Shown: positions 39,204 to 42,664 of the stretch, in pieces | How positions within the stretch are numbered: the first letter of the stretch is position 1 | How the letters are laid out: every line of letters starts with the position of its first letter | Origin: Escherichia coli | Lineage (GTDB): Bacteria; Pseudomonadota; Gammaproteobacteria; Enterobacterales; Enterobacteriaceae | Strand: one strand, 5' to 3' | DNA length: 64,000 bases | Assembly: GCF_003334405.1 (NCBI RefSeq) | Contig: NZ_QOWM01000001.1 | Notes under the pieces: generated by a model | Databases searched by the model: none | Seen by the model: the letters and a program-made list of their open reading frames with translations, nothing else | Told to the model about the DNA's origin: nothing | Position numbers and translations under genes: made by a program

Positions 39204-40394
39204 GTGACCACCCGACAGCATTCGTCGTTTGCTATTGTTTTTATCCTTGGCCTGCTGGCCATGTTGATGCCGCTGTCGATTGATATGTATCTGCCCGCGC
39301 TACCGGTAATTTCAGCGCAGTTTGGCGTACCGGCGGGCAGTACGCAGATGACCCTCAGTACTTATATTCTGGGCTTTGCGTTGGGGCAGTTAATCTACGG
39401 GCCGATGGCAGACAGCTTCGGGCGTAAGCCGGTGGTGCTCGGCGGTACGCTGGTGTTTGCCGCCGCCGCGGTGGCGTGTGCGTTGGCAAACACCATCGAT
39501 CAGCTGATTGTGATGCGTTTCTTCCACGGGCTGGCTGCGGCTGCGGCCAGCGTGGTCATTAACGCCCTGATGCGCGATATTTACCCGAAAGAAGAGTTCT
39601 CGCGGATGATGTCGTTTGTCATGCTGGTGACAACCATTGCACCGCTGATGGCACCGATAGTTGGCGGCTGGGTGCTGGTGTGGCTGAGCTGGCATTACAT
39701 CTTCTGGATCCTGGCATTAGCGGCGATTCTGGCTTCGGCAATGATTTTCTTCCTGATTAAAGAAACCTTACCACCGGAGCGTCGTCAGCCATTTCACATT
39801 CGTACCACTATTGGTAACTTTGCGGCGCTGTTCCGCCATAAACGTGTCCTGAGCTACATGCTTGCCAGTGGTTTCAGCTTTGCCGGGATGTTCTCATTCT
39901 TAAGCGCCGGACCGTTTGTTTATATTGAAATTAACCACGTCGCGCCGGAAAACTTTGGTTATTACTTTGCGCTAAACATTGTTTTTCTGTTCGTGATGAC
40001 CATCTTTAACAGCCGCTTCGTCCGCCGCATTGGCGCGTTAAATATGTTCCGCTCGGGGTTGTGGATACAATTTATTATGGCAGCGTGGATGGTCATCAGT
40101 GCGCTGCTGGGGCTGGGATTTTGGTCGCTGGTGGTTGGCGTTGCGGCGTTTGTGGGCTGCGTGTCGATGGTGTCATCCAATGCGATGGCGGTCATTCTTG
40201 ATGAGTTTCCCCATATGGCGGGAACGGCATCTTCGCTGGCAGGAACCTTCCGTTTTGGCATAGGGGCAATTGTTGGCGCATTGCTTTCTCTTGCGACCTT
40301 TAACTCTGCATGGCCGATGATTTGGTCAATTGCATTCTGCGCAACCAGCTCCATTCTCTTCTGTCTGTACGCCAGTCGGCCGAAAAAACGGTGA
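39204..40394 (+). CDS. bcr: MFS efflux transporter Bcr (bicyclomycin/multidrug resistance)
   Basis: ORF 396 aa, GTG start, 12-TM MFS topology; matches Bcr. Confidence 0.94.
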
Positions 40395-40726
40395 TCTATT
40401 GCACAACGAGGAAGCTAAAAGGCTTCCTTTGTTGATGCATGTCAACCACAAATCTATCATTCCCCCGATATATGTTTATTTTATGTAAAATCAATTTATG
40501 TAAAAAGTCACATCATTGTAGTTAAAAAGATTGAGTTAGATCGCAGAAACGGGTACATATAGCCCCGCAAACGTGACCACGCCCGCAGATATTACTTAAA
40601 TCAGAGCCATAGAGGCCACGCAGGCGAGGCATCAATCTTTACGATCTGTATAAAGACGGATTGTTGATGATGTGTTAAAATTGATGTAAACAAATTGTGA
40701 AGTGAATGTGCTTCCGGGGAAAATAA

Positions 40727-41071
40727 GTGACTTCATTACAACTCTCAATCGTCCATCGACTGCCGCAGAACTATCGCTGGTCTGCTGGTTTCGCAGGTTC
40801 GAAGGTTGAACCGATTCCGCAAAATGGACCGTGCGGTGACAACAGCCTGGTGGCGCTTAAATTGCTTAGCCCGGATGGTGATAATGCATGGTCGGTGATG
40901 TATAAACTAAGCCAGGCGTTAAGCGACATCGAAGTTCCATGTTCGGTGCTGGAGTGTGAAGGTGAGCCGTGCCTGTTTGTAAATCGCCAGGACGAGTTTG
41001 CTGCAACATGCCGATTGAAAAATTTTGGTGTGGCAATTGCCGAACCCTTTTCAAACTACAATCCTTTTTAA
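40727..41071 (+). CDS. yejG: Uncharacterised protein YejG
   Basis: ORF 114 aa, GTG start ([18 protein letters not shown]...); function unknown to my knowledge. Confidence 0.88.
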
Positions 41072-41074
41072 GCG

Positions 41075-42664
41075 TCAGCTCAACGCCAGTAGCTGACGCG
41101 TATACTCCTGCTGCGGTGTGGCAAACACGCGCGCGCACGGTCCTTGTTCCACTACTTCCCCTTGTCGCAGTATGATAACCTGATGACATAACGCGCGGAC
41201 AACGTGCAAATCGTGGCTGATAAACAAATAGGCCAGTTGATGCTTTTGTTGCAATGATTTCAATAGCGTCAATATTTGCGCCTGTACCGTTTTGTCGAGT
41301 GATGATGTCGGTTCATCAAGTATGATCAGCGAGGGCTTAAGAATTAATGCCCTGGCAATCGCAATACGTTGTCGCTGACCACCAGAGAACTCCGCCGGAT
41401 AACGGTGGCGTGTTTCAGGATCTAATCCCACTTCATGCATCACGGCTATCACTTGTTGTTCGCGTTGTGCGGCAGAAAGCGTCGGCTGGTGAACCCGTAA
41501 GCCTTCCTCAATAATCTGCAAAACGTTGAGTCGTGGGTTGAGCGAGGAGTTTGGATCCTGAAATACCACCTGAATGCGATGACGAATAGGTAACAGCTGG
41601 CGGCGATTTAAATTTTGCAGTGGCTGACCGTCAAAGATGATGCTGCCCTGAGAATTAATCAGTCGCAGCAGCGCCAGTCCCGTCGTACTTTTCCCGGAAC
41701 CGGACTCGCCCACTAAACCCAGTGTTTCACCCGCTCGTAGCGTAAAACTGATGTTTTTCACCACCACATTATGATCCACAATGCGCTTCAAAATCCCTTT
41801 GCGAATGGGGAAGGCAACCTGAAGCTGTTCAACATCCAGCAACGTTGAGGCAGGTTCTGGCAACGGCACTGGATCGCCTGACGGTTCACTGTTGAGTAGC
41901 TTTTGTGTGTAAGGATGAGTGGGTGATGCAAATAGCGTAGCGGCGTAATTTTGCTCGACACAGCGACCGTTTTGCATTACCGCCACGCGGTGGGCCAGTT
42001 TTCTGACAATGCTGAGGTTATGAGTAATAAACAGCATGCCCATATTCAGCTCGCCTTGCAGTTCGCGCAACAGCTGTAAAATCTGCGCCTGGACAGAGAC
42101 GTCCAGTGCGGTGGTCGGTTCATCGGCAATTAATAATTCCGGTCGCGTTAACAGCGCCATCGCAATCATCACCCGCTGCCGTTCGCCGCCGGAGAGCTGA
42201 TGCGGATAATCTGTCAGCCGTTTTGCCGCCTGGCGGATACCAACGCGATCAAGGCAGTTAAGAATTTCGCCACGAGCCGCTTCCCGACGCATCCCGCGGT
42301 GGAGTGAAAGCACTTCATAAAGCTGTTTTTCCAGGGTATGCAATGGATTTAACGACACCATCGGTTCCTGAAAAATCATGGCGATCTTATTACCGCGTAC
42401 ACCGCGCAACGTTTGATCGCTGGCGTGAAGCAGCGATTCGCCATGAAAACGAATATCGCCGGAGAGATATTCAACCGGCGGGGAAGGGAGCAGGCGTAAA
42501 ATTGACAGCGCGGTAACGCTTTTGCCTGAACCTGACTCACCCACCAGCGCCAGCGTTTCGCCAGCCTCAATCTGTAGTGAAACATCATTGACTACTGTAC
42601 GTACGGTTTGCTGATGGCGAAAACCCACCGACAAATTTTCAATCGCTAACAGAGTTTGCGTCAT
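41075..42664 (-). CDS. yejF: ABC transporter ATPase YejF (tandem ATP-binding domains; peptide/microcin C uptake)
   Basis: ORF track 41075..42712 trimmed to MTQTLLAIENLSVGF... (529 aa); two Walker A motifs GESGSGKS. Confidence 0.93.
   Translation of the reverse strand: MTQTLLAIENLSVGFRHQQTVRTVVNDVSLQIEAGETLALVGESGSGKSVTALSILRLLPSPPVEYLSGDIRFHGESLLHASDQTLRGVRGNKIAMIFQEPMVSLNPLHTLEKQLYEVLSLHRGMRREAARGEILNCLDRVGIRQAAKRLTDYPHQLSGGERQRVMIAMALLTRPELLIADEPTTALDVSVQAQILQLLRELQGELNMGMLFITHNLSIVRKLAHRVAVMQNGRCVEQNYAATLFASPTHPYTQKLLNSEPSGDPVPLPEPASTLLDVEQLQVAFPIRKGILKRIVDHNVVVKNISFTLRAGETLGLVGESGSGKSTTGLALLRLINSQGSIIFDGQPLQNLNRRQLLPIRHRIQVVFQDPNSSLNPRLNVLQIIEEGLRVHQPTLSAAQREQQVIAVMHEVGLDPETRHRYPAEFSGGQRQRIAIARALILKPSLIILDEPTSSLDKTVQAQILTLLKSLQQKHQLAYLFISHDLHVVRALCHQVIILRQGEVVEQGPCARVFATPQQEYTRQLLALS

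Follow-up and report, generated by a model that had tools for sequence, protein, structure and literature searches.

The bcr-yejG intergenic region

The window, a stretch of 64,000 nucleotides of Escherichia coli DNA, carries the genes rsuA, bcr and yejG in this order, followed by the convergent yejF, and bcr is separated from the GTG start codon of yejG by a spacer of 332 bp (40395-40726; Table 1). The locus is E. coli K-12 DNA whose sole difference from MG1655 over about 5 kb lies at position 40530. All 5426 complete genomes of E. coli contain both the spacer and yejG, and no feature is annotated in the spacer. Our comparison set consists of 80 loci encoding relatives of YejG, a protein of solved structure (PDB 6BI6), with subsets of 20 genera for identity, 27 genera for the terminator and 47 aligned sequences. 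Throughout the Enterobacteriaceae in this set, bcr precedes yejG and the two are separated by about 330-340 bp.

Table 1. Features of the bcr-yejG region, in window coordinates; negative numbers refer to the P2 start site.
Feature	Position	Strand	Description
bcr	39204-40394		preceded by rsuA
bcr intrinsic terminator	40400-40437	+	stem-loop GGAAGC-TAAAAG-GCTTCC (40410-40427) with A-rich/U-rich flanks
FNR-type palindrome TTGATGCATGTCAA	40432-40445	.	9/10 match to TTGAT-N4-ATCAA; centre 40438.5
Linker	40446-40471	.	sequence variable, length fixed; contains TATCAT (40455-60)
Nearly invariant 95-bp block	40472-40566	+	repeat, upstream regulatory sites and P2 core promoter
Direct repeat TGTTTA-N5-TGTAAA	40473-40489	+	11-bp phasing; -94 to -78; includes first motif copy (40480-90)
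Second motif copy and CRP-like 16-mer TATGTAAAAAGTCACA	40495-40512	+	copy 40495-505; 16-mer 40497-512
A-tract GTTAAAAAG	40521-40529	+	-46 to -38
Private G-to-A substitution	40530	+	-37, directly 5' of the -35 hexamer; G in MG1655
Promoter P2	40531-40567	+	-35 TTGAGT (40531-36), 17-bp spacer, -10 TACATA (40554-59), start G 40567
P2 leader	40567-40661	+	identity 0.50, length variable
Same-strand hexamer array over P1	40662-40701	+	TGTTGA 40662, TGTTAA 40673, TGTAAA 40685, TGTGAA 40696; spacing 11, 12 and 11 bp
P1 5' UTR	40699-40726	+	hairpin GAAGT-GAATGT-GCTTC (40699-40715), Shine-Dalgarno GGGG(A)
yejG	40727-41071		GTG start; followed by convergent yejF

The hairpin behind bcr, which an earlier note on this DNA had called terminator-like, is borne out by folding and by comparison. 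Its 7-bp core stem is GC-rich and directly follows the bcr stop codon, and the hairpin including its flanks has a folding energy of -22.3 kcal/mol (z = -4.6), which none of 200 shuffles equals. In nearly all of the 27 genera a GC-rich hairpin with a T-run is found just 3' of the bcr stop, with stems that differ from one another (GGAAGC, GGGGGC, GGGGCC and others). Since the structure is kept across genera while the stem sequence changes, we regard it as a genuine intrinsic terminator, even though a scan for strict consensus terminators made no call; its tail TTTGTTG (UUUGUUG in the RNA) holds five U in seven positions.

The same note described the spacer as unusually AT-rich and envisaged a curved, H-NS-like or factor-bound promoter upstream of yejG. 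With 38% GC against 51% for the window, the spacer belongs to the lowest 2% of 332-bp windows and is AT-rich relative to genes. However, it ranks only ninth lowest in GC among the 23 intergenic spacers of the same 64 kb, and its composition is thus ordinary for a spacer. It seems highly improbable that curved, H-NS-bound DNA silences yejG as it does the proU and bgl promoters, with which the locus shares AT-rich DNA upstream of a stress-responsive gene and to which one may add the published down-regulation of yejG in a ydgT mutant. Unlike those promoters, the spacer shows no phased A-tracts: AA/TT helical periodicity within it does not exceed that of shuffles, 23-58% of which reach the observed power. 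Nor does it carry an HNS flag in SELEX-based tables that flag many other spacers (PMC3946193). Moreover, gene and spacer belong to the core genome (5426 of 5426 genomes) rather than to horizontally acquired DNA, and the base-specific conservation described below is not something that H-NS binding requires.

Two yejG promoters and a nearly invariant block

The suggestion that this spacer would offer the first handle on the regulation of yejG no longer holds, because start sites, an effect of phoPQ, acid induction and an Hfq-bound 5' UTR RNA have already been published, as have sigma-70 occupancy and hits for RNA polymerase, sigma-32 and CRP. Two starts were mapped by primer extension, P1 at 2,276,299 and P2 at 2,276,419 (U00096.2), with support from sigma-70 ChIP-seq, which places a ChIP event at 2,276,432 in the same coordinates (Chung et al., 2013; PMC3798280). 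Converted to the window through the position of yejG in U00096.3 (2,277,893-2,278,237), the starts lie at about 40687 (P1) and at 40567 (P2). For this conversion the offset between U00096.2 and U00096.3 is taken to be 1,978 bp at this locus, in agreement with the difference in total length. The primers of Chung et al. correspond to 40734-54 and 40597-617, which puts them just downstream of the converted P1 and P2 starts, respectively, as expected.

P2 matches the sigma-70 consensus at only 7 of 12 positions and its -10 element lacks the final T, which is why our promoter scan did not call it; across the alignment, the TTG of its -35 element (40531-33) and TACATATA at its -10 (40554-61) are invariant. 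Upstream of the -35 element the A-tract contains an AAAAA run (40524-28, -43 to -39) that is almost invariant (1.5-2.0 bits), and this tract is possibly a proximal UP-element subsite of P2, judging by its sequence and position. Between the two lies the substitution by which the window differs from MG1655. Relatives have G at this position, with the exception of one Pluralibacter locus that has A, and no complete E. coli genome among the 5426 matches the window exactly over the 100-nt block that contains it. P1 has an extended -10 element (TGtTAAAAT) without a good -35. Its surroundings (40662-40705) are conserved, as are the stem arms of the 5' UTR hairpin, CCGGGGAA and the ribosome-binding site, while the hairpin loop varies. 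Depending on the genus, 66 to 127 bp separate the P2 and P1 -10 elements, and the P2 leader folds no better than its shuffles (z = 0.09). Published sigma-32 ChIP-chip and SELEX signals fall at about 40520-40534. Despite these binding signals, inspection of P2 by eye for a sigma-32 consensus gave only a partial CATAT with an overlong spacer, and we did not retain it as a sigma-32 promoter.

Conservation alternates along the spacer, from the terminator, kept in structure only, through the palindrome arms, a variable linker, the block, the variable leader and the P1 block to the ribosome-binding site. The 95-bp block, which hardly varies within the Enterobacteriaceae, stands out with a mean identity of 0.89 to the 20 genera, compared to 0.79-0.80 for the coding sequences of bcr and yejG and to the value for the P2 leader given in Table 1, and its conservation stops at the P2 start site. 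A mobile or repeated element was considered and rejected, the block being single-copy in each of the 5426 complete E. coli genomes. The arrangement of block, palindrome and hexamers is not described in the literature searched.

Within the block lies the duplicated motif that had drawn attention to the spacer. There is indeed an exact direct repeat, TTTATGTAAAA, of 11 nt at 40480-40490 and 40495-40505, 15 bp from start to start with 4 nt between the copies; the 12-mer originally given, ATTTATGTAAAA, is exact in the second copy only, since the first reads TTTTATGTAAAA. A third copy, 92% identical, occupies 40679-40690, so that the members of the family lie at 40478-89, 40493-504 and 40679-90, and each unit is a near-palindrome of the form TTTA-TG-TAAA. 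The earlier note had let its proposal depend on conservation of the repeats in close relatives, and conserved they are: two TGTAAA hexamers at a period of 15 occur in 70 of the 80 loci, and none of the 47 aligned sequences, those of Serratia and Erwinia included, departs from T-G-T-A-A in the first core. In many genera the second copy retains only TGTAAAAAGTCAC, and conservation is lowest in the ATCA between the copies. It is scarcely credible that the repeat is a product of chance or slippage without function. It is short and AT-rich, to be sure, and the exact 11-mer duplication is found in only 29 of the 80 relatives, but when the spacer was dinucleotide-shuffled 5000 times, a close direct repeat of at least 11 nt appeared in just 21 cases (about 0.4%), and 5000 shuffles of the 25%-GC core gave 14; the cores, moreover, are conserved across families.

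Perhaps the repeat binds no specific protein and serves P2 through its A/T tracts, as a distal UP-like or architectural (Fis/IHF-type) element. The poor consensus match of P2, the conserved A5 tract at -43 to -39 and the 25% GC of the block would suit such a role, which we nevertheless consider quite unlikely. UP elements occupy about -40 to -60, a range outside which the repeat falls with its position at -62 to -87, and the spacer contains no match to the IHF core; patterns for IHF, TyrR and CpxR gave no convincing match or the wrong spacing. Moreover, it is the ATCA between the copies that drifts and the G and the T-G-T core that are invariant, which points to base-specific recognition rather than to a requirement for AT-rich composition.

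Alternatively, the block could be transcribed and act as RNA, be it as a small RNA, through a leader open reading frame (MFILCKINLCKKSHHCS, 40472-40525) or through the ATG-TAA start-stop pairs within the repeats. RNA-seq studies report a novel sRNA in the yejG-bcr spacer, and an Hfq-enriched RNA has been reported as "5' UTR-yejG". A SELEX peak of RNA polymerase also falls in the spacer, where the predicted promoter TTGATG-17-TATCAT (40432-60) would start transcription at about 40467, and in E. coli the start of the reading frame coincides with the start of conservation. However, the -10 element of this promoter, TATCAT, is confined to the three genera Escherichia, Citrobacter and Salmonella, RNAalifold finds no consensus pairs in the block, and no terminator follows the block. 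There is likewise no Rfam match, a scan of 39900-41300 with E up to 10 returning spurious matches only (a human lncRNA and a CRISPR repeat). As coding sequence, the 17-codon frame and the ATG-TAA pairs had to be discarded, given premature stops, a frameshift and loss of the ATG (to TTG) in many genera; differences are spread evenly over the codon positions (109/75/74). Conservation that ends exactly at the P2 start site is what is expected of a DNA element, and an RNA function of the block is in our view very unlikely.

Candidate regulators of yejG

These observations lend support to the remaining idea of the earlier note, a factor-bound promoter. Both motif copies fall between -87 and -62 of a mapped sigma-70 promoter and inside a nearly invariant block, and because this block is so deeply conserved upstream of a mapped yejG promoter, the copies are likely sites for regulatory proteins rather than curved or H-NS-bound DNA. 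From the sequence features and their conservation, together with start sites taken from the literature, we infer that proteins bind at the hexamers and which proteins these may be. We think it probable that yejG is controlled from this spacer, with the hexamers as candidate sites for response regulators of the PhoP or ArcA type and with a possible class-I CRP site. The most economical reading is that of a multi-input cis-regulatory module.

The repeat cores, TGTAAA(A), are members of a TGTNAA hexamer family, all oriented as yejG. There are six TGTNAA hexamers on the plus strand of the spacer and none on the minus strand, against an expectation of 0.61, and none of 2000 shuffles reaches six; TGTAAA itself occurs three times on the plus strand versus 0.2 expected. 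The first motif copy would pair with TGTTTA 11 bp upstream, in the geometry of the OmpR/PhoB family and of PhoP or ArcA type. This pair (TGTTT[AC]-N5-TGTAAA) is present in 75 of the 80 relatives, and the Serratia sequence, which differs, again shows TGTAAA-N5-TGTTTA. The array further downstream covers the extended -10 element of P1 (40673-81) and its start site. Counting position 40662, where most genera have TGTCAA in place of TGTTGA, four hexamers with the 11-12-11 spacing are found in 49 of the 80 relatives, and three hexamers in 57. A regulator bound to this array would be expected to repress P1. Such repression fits the behaviour of yejG in Shigella flexneri, where loss of phoPQ raises its expression 2.7-fold on arrays and 3.9-fold by qRT-PCR.

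How closely do these sites resemble known operators? ArcA reportedly uses TGTTA repeats that are 11 bp apart and overlap sigma-70 promoters. Operators of the OmpR/PhoB family share with the yejG region the same-strand TGT hexamers with a centre spacing of 11 bp (40473/40484 and 40662/40673/40685/40696), a position over the P1 -10 element and start that is usual for repression, and the rise of yejG without phoPQ in Shigella. The PhoP box is (T/G)GTTTA-N5-(T/G)GTTTA (PMC5775216), against which the upstream pair scores 10 of 12, as it does against the ArcA-type pattern, and the P1 array scores 10 of 12 for the PhoP box and 11 of 12 for the ArcA-type pattern. Thus no pair is perfect, and the invariant hexamer is TGTAAA, which never drifts to TGTTTA or TGTTAA; this speaks against either PhoP or ArcA being the cognate protein. 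Counting against a single response-regulator array, the two TTTATGTAAAA copies are 15 rather than 11 bp apart and hence do not form one regular array. Since yejG is absent from both the 38 predicted PhoP boxes and the 11 EMSA-positive operons of PMC5775216, the effect of phoPQ on yejG may also be indirect.

The second motif copy would, with the adjacent TCACA, form a CRP-like site at class-I distance from the weak P2. At lac P1, a class I CRP-dependent promoter, CRP is centred at -61.5. The yejG 16-mer resembles that system in its TGTGA-N6-TCACA-like form with a perfect TCACA half-site, in its centre (40504.5) at -62.5 of a weak promoter, which is the class-I distance within the uncertainty of primer extension (±1), and in the CRP SELEX signal of the spacer. 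It is the only match to the CRP consensus of at least 8/10 in the spacer, and among the 80 relatives 47 have a score of 8/10 at this site and 9 reach 9/10. In contrast to lac P1, the left half-site is weak (TATGT, the A of TGTGA always being T), the centre is one base off, and the site has a conserved AAAAAG centre for which CRP has no need. Genomic SELEX with CRP lists the yejG-bcr spacer at the level of the spacer, and Shimada et al. proposed other boxes within it. Our reading of the spacer as a multi-input control region also gives no account of the conserved sequence between the -35 and -10 elements of P2, TAGATCnCAGAAACGGG.

Upstream of the block lies the FNR-type palindrome, with its centre at -128.5 of P2 and -248.5 of P1. 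Taken by itself, the E. coli match lacks significance, as the 64 kb contain six such matches versus 2.5 expected. Across the relatives, a perfect 10/10 match occurs in 44 of 80, the arms are conserved with a variable central 4 bp in about 68 of 81 loci, and a constant 41-42 bp separates the palindrome from the TGTTT at 40473 even though the intervening sequence varies; judged by this pattern, the palindrome is clearly under selection. It does not occupy a standard FNR position, be it -41.5 for activation or promoter overlap for repression, and a class II FNR promoter driven from it was rejected, no conserved -10 element being located 30 bp downstream on either strand. Our literature search found no paper linking FNR with yejG. 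There is a likeness to complex upstream regions such as that of acs P2, a promoter with tandem CRP/FNR-family sites at -69.5 and -122.5. In the yejG region, too, a palindrome lies far upstream (-128.5) and a second site closer to the start (near -62), with a further conserved element in between, and the spacing of palindrome and block is fixed across genera. It differs from acs P2 in that the distal site is of FNR rather than CRP type and in that both sites are predicted.

It is conceivable, if unlikely, that block and palindrome form one composite switch in which a factor on ATGTAAA at three conserved sites and a CRP/FNR-family protein on the palindrome, FNR or YeiL, jointly control both yejG promoters. 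YeiL is a poorly understood member of that family and is encoded in the same window. A related scenario invokes a single dedicated transcription factor that recognises ATGTAAA at the two upstream copies and at a third at the P1 start (40683-89), perhaps with the intervening DNA of about 190 bp looped out, with the resemblances to PhoP, ArcA and CRP sites being accidental. The three copies do make up one repeat family, with TGTAAA enriched on the plus strand, each unit is near-palindromic, and it is TGTAAA, not a known consensus hexamer, that is invariant. However, no regulator gene adjoins yejG, the distance between the two modules varies over 66-127 bp without clear helical phasing (we looked for such phasing between P2 and P1 and found distances that span nearly a full turn), and many second copies keep only TGTAAAAAGTCAC. 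We therefore hold the dedicated factor, too, to be a doubtful candidate.

Outlook for yejG regulation

In kind, the element upstream of yejG is an ordinary bacterial promoter control region whose architecture is unusually well conserved, and it changes no general principle. It belongs to a gene that is conserved across the Enterobacteriaceae and has no known function, and published work ties this gene to stress: in addition to the effect of phoPQ, yejG shows acid-specific induction, and its overexpression leads to antibiotic tolerance. Conservation is higher in the control region than in the gene itself, and the palindrome, the hexamers, the TCACA half-site and the promoters are located to the base and hence directly testable. 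Should the composite switch described above prove true, it would open a direct experimental route to the signal to which yejG responds, and hence to the function of yejG.

Substitutions in the window and the -37 position of P2

The window is MG1655-like without being identical to it, and differs from MG1655 by ten substitutions, every one of them a transition. Since this spectrum consists of transitions throughout, it suggests that the DNA derives from a mutagenised or mutator K-12 derivative. The window also lacks, in yejO, the IS5 element that is present in MG1655 yejO, and its GC-rich eco-mqo spacer carries one additional 113-bp tandem unit relative to MG1655. Within the yejG control region, the substitution at 40530 (A in the window, G in MG1655) lies at -37 of promoter P2, immediately 5' of the -35 hexamer; of the CRP boxes that Shimada et al. 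put forward, one has its final base altered by this substitution. None of 5426 complete E. coli genomes matches the window over the 100-nt block that includes this position, all of them differing from it, and the relatives carry G here, with one Pluralibacter locus as the sole exception.

Positions of features in window coordinates
Feature	Position	Detail
Substitutions relative to MG1655	8068, 12695, 15173, 29569, 29649, 37581, 40530, 43364, 54509, 61255	
eco-mqo spacer	15211-15773	
yejO junction	near 30046	IS5 in MG1655
Klebsiella palindrome equivalent	40508-40521	TCACA-TCAT-TGTAG in E. coli
P1 5' UTR hairpin	40699-40715	GAAGT-GAATGT-GCTTC
LacI-family operator-like sequence	40805-40820	GTTGAACCGATTCCGC
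yejG/yejF stop codons	41071-41075	3 bp apart
yeiL	about 62950-63609	minus strand

The yejG transcript and its coding region

The 5' UTR of the P1 transcript contains a small hairpin directly upstream of the Shine-Dalgarno sequence. Across genera its arms are conserved while its loop varies, and it resembles the bcr terminator stem, both belonging to repeat family D4. At the other end, yejG and yejF are convergent, and their stop codons lie so close together that transcription of the two genes must overlap at the 3' ends; PMC12288877 lists the pair among its excludon candidates. An operator-like sequence of the LacI family within yejG coincides with a predicted GalR site, given at 2,278,144-59 in PMC5110547. 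A Cra ChIP-exo site has also been reported somewhere within yejG.

Candidate regulator sites

Among the fetched YejG-relative loci, those of Klebsiella designated L031, L043, L044 and L048 carry a perfect palindrome, TCGCA-N4-TGCGA, in which both arms have changed jointly with respect to E. coli (A to G and T to C). This joint change of the arms is a hint that the stretch separating the UP-like A-tract from the CRP-like half-site holds a symmetric site. Further upstream, the orphan FNR-type palindrome TTGAT-N4-ATCAA could conceivably have a partner in YeiL, which is itself encoded in the window and is the third, little characterised member of the CRP/FNR family in E. coli.
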